Shown in pieces: positions 45,219 to 59,211 of a stretch of 64,000 bases of DNA. The notes under the pieces are model-generated. The model was not told where the DNA came from. It ran no database searches and saw only the letters and a program-made list of their open reading frames with translations. Numbering within the stretch: position 1 is the stretch's first letter; each line of letters begins with the position of its first letter. Source of the stretch: Coleofasciculus chthonoplastes F2-STO-03 (GTDB lineage: Bacteria; Cyanobacteriota; Cyanobacteriia; Cyanobacteriales; Coleofasciculaceae); NCBI GenBank assembly GCA_040222015.1, contig JAVJWO010000071.1, positions 14,497 through 78,496 on the forward strand. The letters are read 5' to 3'. Position numbers and translations under genes: made by a program.

Positions 45219-45842
45219 CTACTCTATGAGTCGTTTTAAAATTTGAATCACCCGATGCAGTTGGTTATCACGGCGAGTTGAAAGGGTAAATTTATCAGAT
45301 AAATCATATTCTTTTTGCTGAGGGTCTAGTTTGACAAAAAGGTAATCTTCTCCGGTGGTAATTAAACCATAAGCGGGATTCTCGGTTGTCGGGTTAGACA
45401 TCATGTAGGCGAGGGTTTGGGGTAAAGCCTGCATCACACTAAAACCATAGCGTTTGGTTTCTAAAAGGATGAGCCACAATCGCTCCTGCATGACTAAAAT
45501 ATCAATGAGTCCCTCTAGGATTTGGTCTTTGTCTTCGATTTCAATTTTGATGTATTTTTCCCCTTTGATGAGATAGGGGGGATCGTACAAGCCTAATAGT
45601 TCTAGAATTGGAGCAATTATAATCAGGTTTACGGTACTTTCGGTAATCGCACCTTCGGCTTGGTAATAACGATAGCGGGTTCGTAGGCGATCGCACTTTT
45701 CAATTTCCCCCAGGCTGAGTTCGGGTAAGGGTTCTAGCCATTCTGGGAAGAAGGTGGGGTTGGTTGTCGGCTGCAATTGAAAGGTATGATGCGCCTGGTT
45801 TAAGTTTGTAATCGCTTTGGTAACACCAATAACCTGGGGCAT
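45219..45842 (-). CDS. Restriction-endonuclease-like protein (HsdR N-terminal / PD-(D/E)xK)
   Basis: GLIDILV..LETK..QTLAYM..GLITTG. Confidence 0.75.
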   Translation of the reverse strand: MPQVIGVTKAITNLNQAHHTFQLQPTTNPTFFPEWLEPLPELSLGEIEKCDRLRTRYRYYQAEGAITESTVNLIIIAPILELLGLYDPPYLIKGEKYIKIEIEDKDQILEGLIDILVMQERLWLILLETKRYGFSVMQALPQTLAYMMSNPTTENPAYGLITTGEDYLFVKLDPQQKEYDLSDKFTLSTRRDNQLHRVIQILKRLIE

Positions 45843-46760: not shown

Positions 46761-48974
46761 ATGGAAGCTGAAGAGGTTCTGAAACGATATGTAGCAGGAG
46801 AACGGGATTTTCGCGGTGAAAGTCTTTGCGGTCAATCGTTTAAGGGAAAAAACCTTTCGGGGGCAGATTTTAGTGAGGCGGATATTCGAGGGGCAAACTT
46901 TACTAATGCTTACCTAAGAGGTGCAAAGTTCTGTAGTGCGAAAGCCGGATTGCCACGTCATCAAGGAATTATTTTAGTATGTGTAGCATTTCTGCTAGCA
47001 ACAGGACTTGGACTGGTTGCTGGATTAGTAAGTTTTTTTGCACTGGATCTACTCGGTTCATTTAATATTAAAAATATTATTTTACCTATGGATATTGCTG
47101 CAATAGTAATGTCTGTATTTTTCTTTTTCTTAGTTTATTCTGGTTATAATAAAGCCAAAGAAGCTACTCGCAACAATATGGAACAGCACGTAGAAGTGAC
47201 TGTACATAGCTCTTTAGCCCTAACCTTCTGGGGAATTGTAGTTTTAACCATTTCAGTAGTTCTAATTTATTCTGGCAACTTTGCTACAGTTGTAGCCCTA
47301 ACTCTATTGGGCGGTGTAGTTTTAATGACAGCTCTTCTCTTAGCTCTTACTATGGCTGGAGTTGGTGTTCTCACTGGCTCATTAGCTGTAGCTGTAATTT
47401 TGGCAGGATTCGTGGCTATAGCTGGTGCTGTAGCCAGAGTTTTTGTAGAAGGTGGTCAGTTGAGTGTGACTTGGGCAATCAGCTTTGTTGTAGCTAGCGC
47501 TGCTGTTGTCGGATTACTAGCTAGTTACATTGGTTTTGAAGCCTCAACGAGAAAAAGATTCGCTTGGATTCAGATGATTGCCATTAACTTTGCGGCTTTA
47601 GGTGGTACTAGCTTTCGCCGAGCCGATTTAACTGAGACGGACTTTAGCAGAGCTATTCTCAAAAGTACAGATTTTCGAGAATCCATTTTATATCAGACTT
47701 GTTTTATTGATGCGCGTAAATTAGAGCAATCAAGATATGACAATCCTAATTCTTCAATAATTGCAAATCCATCTGTCCGATATTTGCTTATCCATGGTGA
47801 TGTTCAGAATAATCCATACACTCAAAACAAATCCTACGATAGAGAAAATCTCAGAGGTGCATTTCTAAAAGGAGCCAACTTACAGGATGCTAGTTTTATC
47901 GGCGCTGATTTGAGTGAAGCCAACCTGCAAGATGCAGACTTATCCAGAGCCAAATTAGTACAAACCCAATTAGATGAAGCCGATTTAACAGGTGCAACCC
48001 TCACAGGAGCTTTTATCGAGGATTGGAACATCACCAGTCATACCAAATTACAGGGGATTAGATGTCGGTATGTCTTCATGCGTTTACCGACTAAAGATGA
48101 CCCTGAACCTCGCCGCAAACCCGATAACCGGGAAGAAGAGTTTGAAGATGGGGATTTTGCCGACTTTATCAAGCCAATCGTTGATACTCTCGACCTCTAC
48201 CATAATCAGGGGGTTGACCCTCGTACTATTGCAATTTCCTTTAAGCAGTTAGCTGAAAATAACCCAGAGGCTGAGTTAGAGATTGTCGCGATGGAGAAAC
48301 GGGGTAAAGATAAATTCTTACTCCGTGCAGCAACGGCTCCTGACGCTGATCATTCTAAACTGAATGCTGAGTATTTCAAGACTTATAATCAGATTAAAGC
48401 CTTAGCTGAAGCAGAAGTACAGGCATTACTCGCTGAGAAAGATAGCCGAATTTCCAGTTTAGAGACTATGGTAAATACGGCGCTACAGCGTCCAAGTCCA
48501 AGTTTTTATACAAACACGCAAGTTGAACAGGTAGGTATTATGACTAACAATCCTGGTGGTATTTCTCAATCCAATACAGGTTCAATGGGAGGTGGACAGC
48601 AAGGCGCTATCGGTGACCAAAACAAGCAAACGATGTCCACTCAAACGGCTGCATCCGCAGGGGAACAGCTAACCCAACAAGACGTTCTGCAAATGCTGGA
48701 GCAGATTGAGCAAATGATTGATTCGGCTGAAATCCCAGAAGACATTAAAGAAGAAGCAAACACTTACTTGGGGGCGGCGAAAAAAGCTGTTGAGAAAGAA
48801 GAACCAAACAAAGAACGGGTAAACATTAACCTAGAAGGAGTAGCAGAAGAACTAGAGAAAGCCAGTAAGGTAGCAGAAGCTGGCACTACTTTATTTACAA
48901 AAGTTAAGCCAATTCTCGTTAAAGTTGCAGGTTGGTTAGGTGCAGCCGCAGGTTCTTTCTTCGGTACTCTCTAA
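46761..48974 (+). CDS. Pentapeptide-repeat protein with TM block, G/Q/N-rich motif and C-terminal helical domain
   Basis: A(D/N)(F/L) repeats flank a hydrophobic block; GSMGGGQQGAIGDQN near the C-terminus. Confidence 0.88.
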   Translation: MEAEEVLKRYVAGERDFRGESLCGQSFKGKNLSGADFSEADIRGANFTNAYLRGAKFCSAKAGLPRHQGIILVCVAFLLATGLGLVAGLVSFFALDLLGSFNIKNIILPMDIAAIVMSVFFFFLVYSGYNKAKEATRNNMEQHVEVTVHSSLALTFWGIVVLTISVVLIYSGNFATVVALTLLGGVVLMTALLLALTMAGVGVLTGSLAVAVILAGFVAIAGAVARVFVEGGQLSVTWAISFVVASAAVVGLLASYIGFEASTRKRFAWIQMIAINFAALGGTSFRRADLTETDFSRAILKSTDFRESILYQTCFIDARKLEQSRYDNPNSSIIANPSVRYLLIHGDVQNNPYTQNKSYDRENLRGAFLKGANLQDASFIGADLSEANLQDADLSRAKLVQTQLDEADLTGATLTGAFIEDWNITSHTKLQGIRCRYVFMRLPTKDDPEPRRKPDNREEEFEDGDFADFIKPIVDTLDLYHNQGVDPRTIAISFKQLAENNPEAELEIVAMEKRGKDKFLLRAATAPDADHSKLNAEYFKTYNQIKALAEAEVQALLAEKDSRISSLETMVNTALQRPSPSFYTNTQVEQVGIMTNNPGGISQSNTGSMGGGQQGAIGDQNKQTMSTQTAASAGEQLTQQDVLQMLEQIEQMIDSAEIPEDIKEEANTYLGAAKKAVEKEEPNKERVNINLEGVAEELEKASKVAEAGTTLFTKVKPILVKVAGWLGAAAGSFFGTL

Positions 48975-48986
48975 TCGTTATAACAA

Positions 48987-51302
48987 ATGTGTGAACCACC
49001 GTCCCATGAACCCAATTCAAAACAGTCCCAGCCTGAACCAAGTGTTCAGCAGAAAAATGCAGGTTCAATGGGCGGTGGACAACAGGCGGCAATTGGTGAT
49101 AGAAATGTCCAGGTACAGGGAAAGGGTAACTGGGTCTGGAATTTTTTCTTTGGTTGGGGTGGCAAAAGTTTAACTCGACACGAAGAATACCGCAAGCGTC
49201 AGGCTTTACTCAATAACGTCAACAAATGTTGGGTCAAAGATGTTCTAGAAAAATCCCTCTACAATCAGGTGATGATTGAGTTGGGATTGGAGGAACGCCC
49301 CGATGCTATTACTAATCCTTGGAGTGCCATTATAGAGACGAATGACTCACCTCAACCTCTCCCCGATGGAACTAAAATAATCGATATATTTGACCAAATC
49401 GGCATAGGTCGAACGCTACTCATTTTAGGGGAACCGGGGTCAGGAAAAACCACGACGCTATTGGAACTCACACGCGATTTAATCGCCCGTGCGGAACAAG
49501 ACATTAACCGGCTGATTCCTGTTGTATTTAACCTCTCCTCTTGGGCGAATAAACGGCAGAAAATCGAGGATTGGTTAGTGGAGGAACTGAATAGTAAGTA
49601 TTCTGTACCTAAGAAAATAGGTCAAGCGTGGGTAACACAACAGCAACTGCTTCCATTGCTGGATGGTTTAGATGAAGTTAAGGCGGAGTATCGAGACGAC
49701 TGTATTGCCACGTTGAATCAATTCAAGCAGGATAATGGTTCAGAGTTGGTGGTGTGTAGTCGGATTAAAGACTATGAAGCCTTATCTAATCGTCTGAATT
49801 TTCAAAGTGCTGTTTATATAAAATTACTGACTTTAGAACAAATTTGTCATTACTTGGATAGTGTCGGTACTGACTTGGCAGGTTTGAGGAAATTAATTGT
49901 AGAGGATACAGTATTGCAAGAGTTAGCCCAATCTCCTTTGATGCTCAATATTATGACTCTGGCTTACCAGGGAGTTGCGGTTGAGGATTTGCCAAAAACT
50001 GAGATGGCAGAAGAACGGCGTAAGCAGCTATTTGATGATTACATTGAGAAAATGTTTCATCGCCCTAATCGTTCAAAGGGTGAACAGAGATATTCAAAAT
50101 TTCAAACAAAGCATTGGCTGAGTTGGCTAGCACAGAGAATGCTTCAGGAGTCGCAAACTGTATTTTTCATTGAAGGAATGCAGCCTCGTTATCTGAAAAA
50201 TAAATTTCGTCAATGGCAATATTGGGTTTTACTTGTCATAATGAATTTAGTGGCTGCTGGAACTATTGCTACGATTGTTATTTTGCAATGGTTCTTGCCT
50301 GAACATTCAATATCATGGTCATCTATTTCTAATCGCATCTTACTATTCGGCTCATGGTTTGGATTTATTCTATCTACTGAGTCCAAAGCTGATGCTAGCC
50401 GATTAATAATGTATCCCATCGTTCAAGTTTTTTGCTTTCTATTCAGGAAAAAGCTACCAAGAGAGTTTCAAGATAACATACCTATTCTTCATGACATCGA
50501 TCTCTCTTCAAGATTTCGATTAAAAGCCCCTTCACTGAGAGATTTGAAAGATAAAGTTTTGCAACATTCGCTAGGACACGCTTTATTGATGTCCGAGTGG
50601 ATGTGGAAGATATTGCTATTGCCGATTATCATACCAATTCATATACTTTTCGGAGAATTAGCATATGCAATTGGTATGCAAAGGTTGGGCAGCAATTCAA
50701 AAAAATATTTTAAGTTTCTAATTAAACGCTCTATAGCAGTTTCTAATGAAATCAACGAATCAATAGATTCCAATCAAAACTCGAATTATATTCTTCTATT
50801 TGTGATACTGTATCAGTATGGAGATATGATTAAAATAAAAGGAGGCTTGTTAATCAAGCTATCTTTAAAAATATTGACATTTATTCCAGGATTGATGTCA
50901 TTCATTTTTTCTGTGTTTATAAGCTTATTTAATGTTTTGACAGCAGAAAAAATAGAAGATTCGCTAGCTCCGAACTATCGCGTAAAAGAAGCTTCAAAAA
51001 CTGCATTTTTAAGTTCAATACTTTTCTGTCTTTCTTCTATCATAGCCTTCCAGAGGCCAGCCACATACTATCGATTCATTTCTTGTATTCTTGGCTTTTT
51101 GGCTTGCTTGAGTTATTTACCTTTGCTCAAACATCTATCTCTGCGCCTTGTCCTTTGGCACAGTGGTGCTATTCCCTGGAACTATGCCCACTTCCTCGAC
51201 TATGCCGCAGATCGCATCTTCCTCCAAAAAGTTGGCGGCGGCTACATCTTCATCCACCGAATGCTGATGGAACACTTTGCCCAGATGGAACTTGAACGCT
51301 AA
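48987..51302 (+). CDS. NACHT (STAND) NTPase with C-terminal TM region
   Basis: GEPGSGKTT Walker A, LLDGLDE Walker B, SPLML, FLDYAADRIFLQKVGGGYIFIHRML. Confidence 0.92.
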   Translation: MCEPPSHEPNSKQSQPEPSVQQKNAGSMGGGQQAAIGDRNVQVQGKGNWVWNFFFGWGGKSLTRHEEYRKRQALLNNVNKCWVKDVLEKSLYNQVMIELGLEERPDAITNPWSAIIETNDSPQPLPDGTKIIDIFDQIGIGRTLLILGEPGSGKTTTLLELTRDLIARAEQDINRLIPVVFNLSSWANKRQKIEDWLVEELNSKYSVPKKIGQAWVTQQQLLPLLDGLDEVKAEYRDDCIATLNQFKQDNGSELVVCSRIKDYEALSNRLNFQSAVYIKLLTLEQICHYLDSVGTDLAGLRKLIVEDTVLQELAQSPLMLNIMTLAYQGVAVEDLPKTEMAEERRKQLFDDYIEKMFHRPNRSKGEQRYSKFQTKHWLSWLAQRMLQESQTVFFIEGMQPRYLKNKFRQWQYWVLLVIMNLVAAGTIATIVILQWFLPEHSISWSSISNRILLFGSWFGFILSTESKADASRLIMYPIVQVFCFLFRKKLPREFQDNIPILHDIDLSSRFRLKAPSLRDLKDKVLQHSLGHALLMSEWMWKILLLPIIIPIHILFGELAYAIGMQRLGSNSKKYFKFLIKRSIAVSNEINESIDSNQNSNYILLFVILYQYGDMIKIKGGLLIKLSLKILTFIPGLMSFIFSVFISLFNVLTAEKIEDSLAPNYRVKEASKTAFLSSILFCLSSIIAFQRPATYYRFISCILGFLACLSYLPLLKHLSLRLVLWHSGAIPWNYAHFLDYAADRIFLQKVGGGYIFIHRMLMEHFAQMELER

Positions 51303-53582: not shown

Positions 53583-54851
53583 TTAGTTTGTAAGAGTAAT
53601 CTTAACTGGGTGAACTACTACACCCTCTATCCCATTGCAGAAAGCATCTGGGACTGCTTTGCGGATAATGTTGTAACTTCCATTTGTGTCGGCGTTAAAC
53701 TTAACGCCGTTTTTTGATTTGTACAACCCGCGCTTAAGGCGACGACCGCTAAACTTTGCGGTTTTGGCTTCTGCTGTTCCGTAAACAGGAAGAGGATCTC
53801 CGTCTAAGAAACTGGCAAGCGAAGTGTAGGATTCTTCGGTGATGACAACCTTAATGCCAACCAACTGAGCCTTGTAAGTCAACATCTCAATGAATCTAGA
53901 ATGAGGAACGCTAGTGAAGTTTTGATTATTGGCTTTACCCATATTGAGTTCCTGCTTCCAGTTCTCATTTTTTCCGATTACAAGAGTTGAGATATTCTTC
54001 TCAACTAATCGATCAATAATGAAACGGCTGGACTTATGGAGATAGTCATCTATCTTGAATCCTCGCTTAGTTGACAAGCGCTGAATCCTGTTAGATGTTT
54101 TCCTGTTTTCCTTGAGACGAGACTGAAGCTCAGCTTTCTTTTTGTTATAGAAATTATTAACGGCTTTAACGGGTCTGCCATTAATCAGGAAAGGTTTAAA
54201 GCCTTTTTGATTTGAAGTTACAGCCGCTAAGTTGTTAAGACCAATATCTACACCTGCTACGGCTTCACCGTCTACCAGTTGTTCAACGGATTGTTCATAA
54301 ATTATCTCAACCACGTAGTAGTTAAGACGGGGAACAATTCTCACCTCATTGATATTTTGCTGATTACAAGAAATCATCAGGTTTGTTCCCGATGGTTTCA
54401 CCCATCCCTTCTTCAGCTCTTTGGAGCTAATAGCCTGGATGGTGTAAACCAAGAGATTGCGCCCCTTCTCCTTGTCTTTATATTTAGGGAGTCTAGGCTT
54501 TCCCAGGAACTTGGAAGGGTTTTTCTTGTAAGCTTTATCCGCCTCTTTCCACGCCTTCCAATTTCTATCTAAACAACGAAGAACTTGCTGAGAGACTTTG
54601 CGGGGCAATTCGCAATACGATTCTTCTGCCTGCATCCGAGACGCCATTTCGTTGTAACAGAGAACTTGATTGGTTTCAAAGAAGTGTTGACGAATTTCGT
54701 AATTAGCTCGGTTGTAGAGATTTTTAGACTTAAATGCCAAGCTATCAATCTCTTTCCATTCCCAGCTTCCTTTCCGAATTACATGCTTTTCAACACCTCG
54801 GCTTCGCTCGGTGTTGACCCTGAGCGAAGTCGAAGGGTCAACAAGTCTCAT
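53583..54851 (-). CDS. tnpB: TnpB RNA-guided nuclease with a 16-aa in-frame insertion near the N-terminus
   Basis: GVDIGLNN, TEESYTS, NADTNGSYNI; start MRLV..EKHVI at 54851 preceded by GGAG. Confidence 0.9.
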   Translation of the reverse strand: MRLVDPSTSLRVNTERSRGVEKHVIRKGSWEWKEIDSLAFKSKNLYNRANYEIRQHFFETNQVLCYNEMASRMQAEESYCELPRKVSQQVLRCLDRNWKAWKEADKAYKKNPSKFLGKPRLPKYKDKEKGRNLLVYTIQAISSKELKKGWVKPSGTNLMISCNQQNINEVRIVPRLNYYVVEIIYEQSVEQLVDGEAVAGVDIGLNNLAAVTSNQKGFKPFLINGRPVKAVNNFYNKKKAELQSRLKENRKTSNRIQRLSTKRGFKIDDYLHKSSRFIIDRLVEKNISTLVIGKNENWKQELNMGKANNQNFTSVPHSRFIEMLTYKAQLVGIKVVITEESYTSLASFLDGDPLPVYGTAEAKTAKFSGRRLKRGLYKSKNGVKFNADTNGSYNIIRKAVPDAFCNGIEGVVVHPVKITLTN

Positions 54852-54997
54852 TGTCTCCATTTGACTGAAGCTCACTAATGAGTTTTGACCTCTTGCGCTT
54901 TGCTCTTCTCATTCCATACAGCCTTGCACAAAATGATGTAATGACACTCGCTCTCATCTGTTATCAAGTCTTCTTTGTCGTCAGGAACACTATCTAT
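54838..54997 (-). pseudogene. tnpA: Frameshifted, 5'-deleted IS607 TnpA remnant
   Basis: DDKEDLITD then, in a shifted frame, SVITSFCARLYGMRRAKRKRSKLISEL. Confidence 0.75.
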
Positions 54998-58275: not shown

Positions 58276-59211
58276 CTACTGGCGATCCTCCAACCAACTG
58301 GCTAAATCGGGTAAACTTTGAAAATCGAAAATTTCCTCAGTTAACCGTTCCAAATCACTCAACGGTAATTCTTCAATTTTGCGGCTGATTGCCAACGGAA
58401 TTTCGCCAAAACGCTTCAGTATTAGACGCCCTACTAAAGTTTTGGTCTGTTGTAGTCGCCCTTCTTCTTTCCCTTCTTCTTTCCCTTTTTCTTTCCCTTT
58501 TTCTTCAGCATAAGCCAGCCGTCCTTTTTCATCTTGCAACATCATGCCTCGCCGATCAACCACATCCAACTCTTCTACCGTCATTGTGGCTTGATTGGCA
58601 AGGTTTAAAGCAAGTTCTATCTCTGAAACTTCCCCTAAATTATCAGGGACACTCTCCAAACTCGCTGCTTCTTTCAGGAAATAAATCCATTTATCGGTTA
58701 AACTCTGTAGTTCAGACAAGGTTTTATTGAATTTGGGAAGTTCGACAAAGATTAGCTGCAATTCACTATCTAGAAGTTCAAATTTTTGGGTTTTCTCTTG
58801 AAAGACAAATTGATTAATTACCTGATCTGTGTTGGCAAACAAGATAAAATCAGTAATTGTTACAGCAATTGCTGGATTTAGAAAAGGATAATCATCGCCT
58901 GTTTTCAATTGGTTACTATAGGCTTTTGCCAAGTTATAAGCTACCCGCTTGTTAAAGGCAGTCATCGGTGCTATTTGCATTTCAATGACCACAATCGACC
59001 CATCCGCTAAAACAGCTTTGACATCTAAATAAGTTTCTTTTAAGGTCATCACCTGACCCGGATTATAGGGATTAACAATTGTTAGGGATTGAATGATTTT
59101 TTCTTCGTTATAAATTATTGCATTGAGAAAACTGATTAAAATCTCTTGGCTTTGTTCGGAACCAAAGATTTTTTTAAAGGCATAATCGACCTTGGGACTA
59201 ATAAACCTCAT
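58276..59211 (-). CDS. Rpn-family PD-(D/E)xK nuclease with DUF4351-like tail
   Basis: DYAFKKIFG, LDVKA..IEMQ, FVELPKF, EGKEEG repeats, KRFGEI. Confidence 0.88.
   Translation of the reverse strand: MRFISPKVDYAFKKIFGSEQSQEILISFLNAIIYNEEKIIQSLTIVNPYNPGQVMTLKETYLDVKAVLADGSIVVIEMQIAPMTAFNKRVAYNLAKAYSNQLKTGDDYPFLNPAIAVTITDFILFANTDQVINQFVFQEKTQKFELLDSELQLIFVELPKFNKTLSELQSLTDKWIYFLKEAASLESVPDNLGEVSEIELALNLANQATMTVEELDVVDRRGMMLQDEKGRLAYAEEKGKEKGKEEGKEEGRLQQTKTLVGRLILKRFGEIPLAISRKIEELPLSDLERLTEEIFDFQSLPDLASWLEDRQ

Follow-up and report, generated by a model that had tools for sequence, protein, structure and literature searches.

Does a short motif shared by two adjacent genes of the cyanobacterium Coleofasciculus chthonoplastes F2-STO-03 wire a sensor to a partner, and which part of the upstream gene would that partner be? 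The genes lie on the plus strand of a 64,000-nucleotide stretch of contig JAVJWO010000071.1 (the window, in whose positions coordinates are given). The upstream open reading frame (ORF; 46761..48974) encodes a protein of 737 amino acids (aa) with pentapeptide repeats (Pfam Pentapeptide, 1.7e-30), and the downstream ORF (48987..51302) encodes a 771-aa NACHT NTPase (Pfam NACHT PF05729, 33.9 bits against a cut-off of 26.7). We showed statistically that the motif, or tag, of such an upstream gene pairs with the tag of its neighbour across motif types, and sequence comparison makes it very probable that the tags couple a sensor to the adjacent gene.

Pairing of the shared motif between neighbouring genes

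The motif occupies 48561..48629 in the upstream gene (residues 601–623 of 737) and 49044..49112 in the NACHT gene (residues 20–42). The two stretches are identical at 16/23 residues and 45/69 bases, with eight synonymous and four non-synonymous differences over codons 5–23 and different codons for 9/16 of the identical residues, and the two ORFs are separated by 12 bp. The residue identity, the codon counts and the spacing had been given by the original prediction and were reproduced from the translations, a recount and the ORF boundaries; its statement that the NACHT protein begins with the motif was corrected to residues 20–42. When each 23-residue stretch was scanned without gaps against all 76,982 six-frame ORFs of the genome (40 aa or more), 16/23 was reached solely by the partner copy, the next best matches being 10/23 and 9/23. 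The motif pair contains [VI]GD.N.Q (type A); the motifs across the pairs hold approximately 15% each of Gln, Asn and Gly and are poor in Pro, Leu and Lys. The upstream copy was disordered in the monomer models of both the 737-aa protein and its 144-aa C-terminal module. Within the upstream protein it is internal and is followed by a helical domain of approximately 100 aa.

The same slot in relatives contained unrelated low-complexity motifs, each followed by one of three helical tails (types I–III; 120 homologues listed, 46 loci). Pairing was analyzed in 104 distinct ORFs with a motif slot and a helical domain from loci L001–L166, excluding sequence duplicates, modules cut by a locus end, hidden Markov model scores <30, and cases with <25 residues before the helix. 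A neighbour was defined as an ORF on the same strand whose start lies between −60 and +450 bp downstream; 65 ORFs had one, 33 had none despite visible room, and six lay in loci that were too short. The mean score between a slot and the N-terminus of its cognate neighbour was 67, against a permuted mean of 34.7 (10,000 permutations, none above 42.1), and 53/65 pairs exceeded the best of 300 random N-termini. Matches were found for 30/36 type I modules that stand alone and for 17/38 that are fused, as well as for 6/14 type II and 0/16 type III modules. The 53 matched pairs showed a median identity of approximately 50%, a gap of 30 bp or less in 34 cases, and a median motif start at residue 18 of the neighbour.

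Seven motif types were distinguished among the matched pairs (A, 9; B, 19; Q, 15; E, 4; J, 3; K, 2; H, 1), and their cross table was block-diagonal. Leave-one-out typing assigned the N-terminus to the type of its neighbour in 47/53 pairs (permuted mean 13.9, maximum 26), and independent clustering of both sides gave adjusted Rand indices of 0.40–0.77 against at most 0.24. Because kin share type labels, the NACHT tree, which included the 27/53 neighbours with a sufficiently long core, carries more weight than these counts. Motif type changed nine times on this tree. Types A, E, and B were interleaved within a nine-member clade whose cores were 75–100% identical to the window NACHT, and the sister rows L052/L103 and L029/L086 differed in type, with both genes switched together. 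L103 even carried one shared deviation from type A in both motif copies. Pairwise co-variation, with whose absence the original prediction was to fall, was thus found both in the 53/65 matched pairs and in the joint switching of types. Plasmid loci opened afterwards (six of the 17 plasmid matches) served as an out-of-sample set, in which 6/7 module-bearing pairs were matched; in the seventh, the motif was in frame but lay before the annotated NACHT start and behind a stop codon. The motif pair of L084 resembled a recent copy, and the NACHT N-terminal motifs may well have been copied from the partner in origin.

The matched neighbour was nearly always a sensor-type protein. Thirty-five of the 53 were of the STAND type, comprising 28 NACHT (including one weak match on a cut ORF), three nSTAND1, one NB-ARC, and three iSTAND proteins; the others were three FGE, four TPR, one TPR-GreAB-C-PIN, two TRADD-N, and one Ig-like protein, and seven without a family. 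nSTAND1-WD40 and NB-ARC-TPR proteins also occur as partners in relatives. Among the 12 unmatched neighbours, one was a STAND protein and 11 were not. These results retain from the original prediction a motif-linked pair in which a tag couples a STAND-type sensor to the adjacent gene, and they leave out the pentapeptide protein as such.

A search from the NACHT side showed that close relatives carry other N-terminal motifs, or TIR, kinase, and presumably EAD1-like domains (a name we assign from the appearance of the sequence), at the same place. L051:1099-3396 and L054:1093-3354 have an EAD1-like domain fused to NACHT with a decayed type-A motif in between, the fusion being split in L054, which suggests that a tag was replaced by a folded adaptor. 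The genes downstream of L079, L095, L118, L133, L152, and L157 carry tags, belong to no Pfam family, encode one or two transmembrane helices, and are a possible new sensor class. In L174:3878-8342 the module's partner is an iSTAND gene with MoxR and GUN4 genes behind it, which attaches the module to a ternary conflict system. Decay of the pair was seen in L002:2596-2904, where NACHT is truncated with a transposase-like ORF behind it, and in L173, where a stop codon stands ahead of the NACHT motif. The other modules of the present genome (three type II and two type III) had no matched neighbour; two with type III tails are a pentapeptide paralogue (G000:C69:91373-93499) and a stand-alone ORF (C127:5959-6387). 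Across the genome, a scan of 2,692 neighbouring gene pairs was uninformative, as tandem paralogues dominated the top 25.

The motif–bundle module and its probable internal start

The AlphaFold model of the 737-aa protein (mean predicted local distance difference test score, pLDDT, 77.6) showed, in order, a pentapeptide beta-helix split by a membrane insert, an alpha/beta domain, a coiled coil, the motif slot, and a four-helix bundle. The two parts of the beta-helix, delimited by Pfam and the model, span residues ~15–63 (46803..46949) and ~283–440 (47607..48080); its structural match was alr5209 (Z 17.9, root mean square deviation 2.0, 116 aligned residues). The hydrophobic multi-helix insert between them (residues ~66–279; 46956..47597), predicted to span the membrane from hydropathy, model, and alignment, was poorly conserved and had low pLDDT. 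The alpha/beta middle domain with the coiled coil (residues ~465–576; 48153..48488) was conserved in the alignment, and neither Pfam nor NCBIfam gave a family nor the Atlas a usable match for it. Residues 579–634, which contain the motif, were disordered, and residues 639–736 formed the bundle (48675..48968; pLDDT >90). Among the matches listed, the closest named homologues were from Coleofasciculus and Symploca.

A search with 48540..48971 retrieved 41 proteins of 79–252 aa, many starting at the same Met. The motif and bundle therefore also occur as a stand-alone gene of approximately 140 aa, with the motif at its N-terminus. A profile search yielded 445 clusters at 50% identity, and 66/136 of the new clusters listed were short proteins whose N-terminal stretch runs to at least 25 residues and is in most cases a polar motif, with many kinds represented. 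The module was present in 52/401 genomes of the order and on 17 plasmid records, and had no match in 50,697 phage records. It also occurs fused behind TIR, CHAT, caspase, AbiTii, DUF4062, and Roc-COR domains, and in L003 and L159 the pentapeptide part was broken or lost with the module intact. The pentapeptide part is dispensable and the module separable. The middle domain, in turn, was joined to CHAT-like tails in L041, L016, L037, and L040; in L041 the next gene after the motif–CHAT fusion is small and has that motif again, with a type II helix.

Plasmid pCC7120epsilon of Nostoc PCC 7120 (NC_003270.1, L169:659-6425) carries two tandem pairs with type-A-like tags (WP_010994161.1/162.1 and 163.1/164.1). 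In the first, a protein of pentapeptide repeats and a type II helix is paired with a NACHT protein, and in the second a stand-alone 144-aa module is paired with a 325-aa protein without a Pfam family; a large P-loop protein follows.

The fused genes retained a start signal within the slot. Met was present there in 119/121 homologous proteins compared with 33% of background windows. With an anti-Shine–Dalgarno core from outside this genome's 16S gene, the duplex energy of the Shine–Dalgarno (SD) site before the slot Met had a median of −8.3 (32 loci), compared with −0.95 for 210 other internal Met codons. The slot SD was stronger than synonymously recoded controls in 28/28 loci (L025 and L043, in which a later Met had been picked, being set aside) and was kept through differing amino-acid contexts. 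Where the module was kept and Met was absent, the codon was GTG (six) or TTG (one) in 7/7 distinct loci inspected, L016, L037, L040, and L044 being set aside as lacking both the slot Met and the helical module. Conservation of the SD together with replacement of Met by GTG or TTG indicates that selection acts on initiation rather than on methionine.

At the present locus the SD-like site (48529..48536) had an energy of −7.1, the two annotated starts having −2.1 and +1.2, and it was kept in relatives. The SD site and the in-frame start codon, the criterion for a gene within a gene, were thus conserved, so that the nested 144-aa product is probably made; sequence conservation points strongly to initiation at ATG 48540. 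The predicted nested gene (48540..48974; motif at residues 8–30 of its product) is the likely signalling partner. It takes the place of the pentapeptide protein proposed originally: the partner is the motif with the four-helix bundle, which also occurs alone and probably arises here from the internal start. A scan for promoters and terminators was at chance level (12 vs. 13.6 and 7 vs. 4.8). Metatranscriptome contigs of close relatives (four sets) span or tile 48482–49204 and were not used as evidence, because strand, start, and level are not visible from contigs and DNA origin is possible.

The model of the 144-aa product showed a confident four-helix bundle behind the disordered motif, with an amphipathic last helix by hydrophobic moment (about 48876–48971) that carries W[LF] in 43/47 paired modules. 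A relation between helical types I and III is probable (hhalign 78%, E 1.8e-5), and none was detected between type II and either of them. Pfam and NCBIfam named nothing for the module or the NACHT tail. Unconfirmed leads from the Atlas were DUF4404 (on 21% of one cluster), TCAD2 (score 0.87), and, by structure, small Actinomycetota and AbiTii clusters. MLKL, HeLo, and Bab were not among the fold matches listed for the 144-aa model, which were generic four-helix bundles alone. We rejected CPPC-4h (10.64898/2026.10.19.760177), defined in the available part of that paper by a CP-PC motif, which the module lacks.

Proposed mechanism and its alternatives

We somewhat favour the view that the two genes form an immune signalling pair like NWD2/HET-S, BASS, and Bab/Agp, built in mirror image. 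The NACHT protein has intact Walker A (residues 148–155; 49428..49451) and Walker B (residues 224–230; 49656..49676) motifs and, from hydropathy, a predicted transmembrane sensor region of about five hydrophobic stretches (residues ~412–715; 50220..51131). As its family suggests, the membrane-anchored NACHT would sense a disturbance and oligomerize. Its clustered N-terminal motifs would then nucleate a beta-arch or cross-beta stack, as their composition and analogy suggest, and the stack would recruit the matching motif of the partner, for which the statistical pairing suggests physical binding. The partner would be the ~144-aa protein, motif then bundle, translated from the internal SD and ATG 48540 and also present as the tail of the 737-aa protein, and the long form may contribute a membrane-tethered copy of the tag. 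In the weakest step, polymerization would cluster the bundles and free the C-terminal amphipathic helix, leading to membrane damage and death of the infected cell in the filament. Analogy with these known systems leads us to infer amyloid formation, binding, killing, and defence against phages; an amyloid-type mechanism is probable on that basis, and for the bundle as a death effector the chances appear evenly balanced.

Several observations weigh against this mirror-image pair. As for the fold, Foldseek with the module model gave no match at E≤0.001, and the best structural match, YicC (Z 12.1, root mean square deviation 2.0, 91 aligned residues), was within the range of generic bundles; hhalign of alignment A1 with the Bell protein of L074 (Bell being the effector domain of known BASS pairs), a single-sequence template, showed no similarity (probability 0.3, 10 motif columns). 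As for pairing, 51/104 modules were without a matched neighbour by the filter, including all of helical type III, and 24 of these 51 carried a recognizable motif; a few of the 24 lay at contig ends, and one (L002) faced a truncated NACHT that matched by eye. Genome G050 (99% complete) contained a type-A module, and a search with alignment A3 found no type-A NACHT N-terminus in it. The bundle tree shows just five changes of motif type and the NACHT tree nine, and the pairing P-values overstate the case because the loci are related. On the sensor side, seven matched neighbours had no known sensor domain and several were not NTPases, so that STAND oligomerization is not general. The module is also found on plasmids of Acaryochloris, a unicellular organism. 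Finally, type B motifs look like a beta-roll repeat (weak matches to LbR_Ice_bind), which fits docking through a soluble beta-solenoid equally well.

Such docking without amyloid survives best among the alternatives, and we consider it unlikely. The tags would stack into a short, soluble beta-solenoid that serves as an adaptor, much as an effector-associated domain does, and recruits the partner or its fusion to the sensor. Besides the short repeats of type B, it would accommodate the partners that are not oligomerizing NTPases, the fusion of the module to many enzymatic effectors, and the EAD1-like domains at the same NACHT position. However, the length (approximately 25 aa), composition, gene spacing, and Agp-type partner parallel experimentally shown amyloid systems, the median pair identity of approximately 50% compares with 43–56% for cross-seeding BASS pairs, and the motif was disordered in both monomer models.

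Less likely again is that the short product is a brake like RpnS, binding the NACHT tag and restraining the sensor, or else the long membrane form, with killing by the membrane helices of either. Genes within genes are known as antitoxins in phage defence (PMC10400941), at least in the available part of that source. The internal SD is stronger than both annotated starts, so the short form may be in excess, and a small upstream gene is in the usual antitoxin position. On the other hand, orphan modules persist without a sensor, and same-family NACHTs without motif or partner carry N-terminal TIR or kinase effectors, a hint that output comes from the N-terminal position. The amphipathic helix conserved at the C-terminus also mirrors the N-terminal helix of Bell/HeLo effectors.

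A non-immune pair acting in filament development or envelope stress is very unlikely. Pentapeptide repeats in Nostoc include HetL, sub-threshold NCBIfam matches to the HetL and Alr5209 pentapeptide families were obtained, and the 64-kb window contains no known defence genes beside the pair; however, these matches are confined to the dispensable repeats, the partners and fusions are conflict-system domains, and the module is patchy among genomes and carried on plasmids. Functionless local duplication or gene conversion of a low-complexity stretch between neighbours, as its composition, the adjacency of the genes, and the apparent recent copy in L084 might suggest, is hardly credible and largely refuted by the type-matched pairing, given the base and codon differences within the present pair and seven unrelated motif types that each match a neighbour, nearly always a sensor-type gene.

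Were the mirror-image reading true, the reversed module and its seven or more tag families would bring the known bacterial amyloid repertoire to about twice its size, provide a candidate new class of death effector, and explain what a very common, so far unannotated tail of cyanobacterial pentapeptide proteins does. It would also link amyloid signalling to FGE, iSTAND, TRADD-N, and transmembrane NACHT proteins, sensors so far proposed to use folded adaptors. Different matched tag types on near-identical NACHTs form a natural lock-and-key series for specificity, and the pCC7120epsilon pairs in the model strain Nostoc PCC 7120 make the family directly testable.

Around the gene pair, the window contains a TnpB-like gene of the IS605 family (53583-54875, minus strand; Pfam OrfB_IS605, Cas12f1-like TNB) and, just upstream, a gene with a weak HSDR_N match (45219-45842, minus strand; N-terminus of type I restriction enzyme R). 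The product of 58276-59211 (minus strand), which we take from its appearance to be Rpn/PD-(D/E)XK-like, has a repeated lysine/glutamate/glycine stretch near its end.

Comparison with known amyloid and NACHT systems

The comparison below draws on the available parts of the cited papers and data files. The closest precedent is the set of Bell/NLR pairs BASS1–10 (Dyrka et al., 10.1101/2020.01.06.895854). As in BASS, a G/N/Q-rich motif of approximately 25 aa is common to the N-terminus of a NACHT or NB-ARC protein and an adjacent, collinear, closely spaced gene, and both occur in filamentous cyanobacteria with many motif families on one scaffold, a small helical partner, and a bias toward Q, N, and G. 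In contrast, the BASS motif is C-terminal to its effector (Bell, hydrolase, TIR, CHAT, or cyclase) and was sought in C-termini, whereas here it is N-terminal to a four-helix bundle. Bell starts with a hydrophobic helix, whereas the module starts with the polar motif, carries its hydrophobic helix C-terminally, and in many cases lies nested within a longer gene; the BASS sensor consists of WD or TPR repeats, whereas here it is the multi-transmembrane NACHT C-terminus. Shared motif, gene order, and NACHT-side position thus agree with BASS, whereas an effector-side motif at the C-terminus, a Bell domain, and a repeat-type sensor are absent. Because these three published defining features fail, we did not file the pair as BASS/Bell. 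The original prediction of a BASS- or HET-s-like pair therefore stands as to the kind of coupling and is revised as to its geometry, which is reversed, with a NACHT that ends in a multi-transmembrane region.

The two arrangements also meet within loci. In L074 the same NACHT family stands in a canonical Bell pair (125-aa ORF ending at 1333, NACHT from 1351), the Bell protein closely resembling CCI22909.1 of the BASS data set, and in L171:5959-7662 a canonical pair of Bell with a C-terminal motif and an N-terminal motif adjoins a reversed-type pair. By string comparison, type A has the IGD.N.Q tail of the RHIM-like class C03 and not the full G.Q[VI]GD.N.Q (0/53), and type Q resembles QAGRD of class C01. 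Strings of types A, B, E, and H were not found among the motifs in the searched part of the BASS data file (PMC8086366), in which the NLR N-terminus of BAZ20405.1, under another class label, contains an A-like stretch.

We found no description of an N-terminal effector-side motif, this bundle, or the internal start in the available literature, which also included PMC8195603, PMC12261475, PMC9815663, PMC13506858, PMC10907252, and PMC13581612 and whose figures and supplements could list some pairs. The word "pentapeptide" had 0 occurrences in the two BASS preprints (10.1101/2020.01.06.895854 and 10.1101/2024.11.07.622273) and PMC12261475. The module matched the C-terminal half of the PADLOC candidate PDC-M14B (profile 158–259 of 267, E 2e-8), as did many of its relatives; the match is partial, and PDC-M14B was not named in the searched literature. 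The Rpn genes within genes (Zhong et al., PMC10400941) likewise yield a C-terminal domain from an internal start in a defence gene. They show no sequence relation to the module, and their short product inhibits the long one, whereas the short product here carries a neighbour-matched tag.

Bacterial NACHT proteins with transmembrane C-termini are abundant in cyanobacteria (Kibby et al., 10.1101/2022.07.19.500537) and share with the window NACHT a multi-transmembrane sensor region, a swappable N-terminal effector position, and intact Walker A and B motifs. The main text of that study does not contain the word "amyloid", and its available passages describe no motif-linked partner in trans, although its Table S1 could list pairs. 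Bab/Agp (BASS11; Ibarlosa et al., 10.1101/2024.11.07.622273) is the experimental precedent for amyloid signalling in abortive infection and resembles the present pair in its adjacent genes, shared motif, and small helical partner. L086:1-8032 carries two tandem type-B pairs, and in the second the module is paired with the Agp architecture itself (TPR-GreAB-C-PIN). Bab has its membrane-acting helix first and its motif last, the reverse of the module; the likeness to BASS11 is one of architecture.

In the surveyed literature, the motif of bacterial and fungal amyloid-controlled effectors is C-terminal, and screens and training sets were built on that position; a 2026 review, in its available part, still places BASS at effector C-termini. 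The module apparently represents a widespread, undescribed family of reversed amyloid-type switches. More tentatively, with a chance slightly short of even, it may constitute a second, mirror-image arm of cyanobacterial amyloid immunity, in which a four-helix death effector with an N-terminal amyloid tag and a C-terminal membrane helix, often produced unnoticed from within pentapeptide, CHAT, or TIR genes, is wired through at least seven tag families to NACHT, nSTAND1, iSTAND, FGE, TRADD-N, TPR, and Agp-type sensors. Such an arm would have been missed because searches covered effector C-termini only, and it would stand beside BASS and Bab/Agp as the same kind of coupling with its order reversed.

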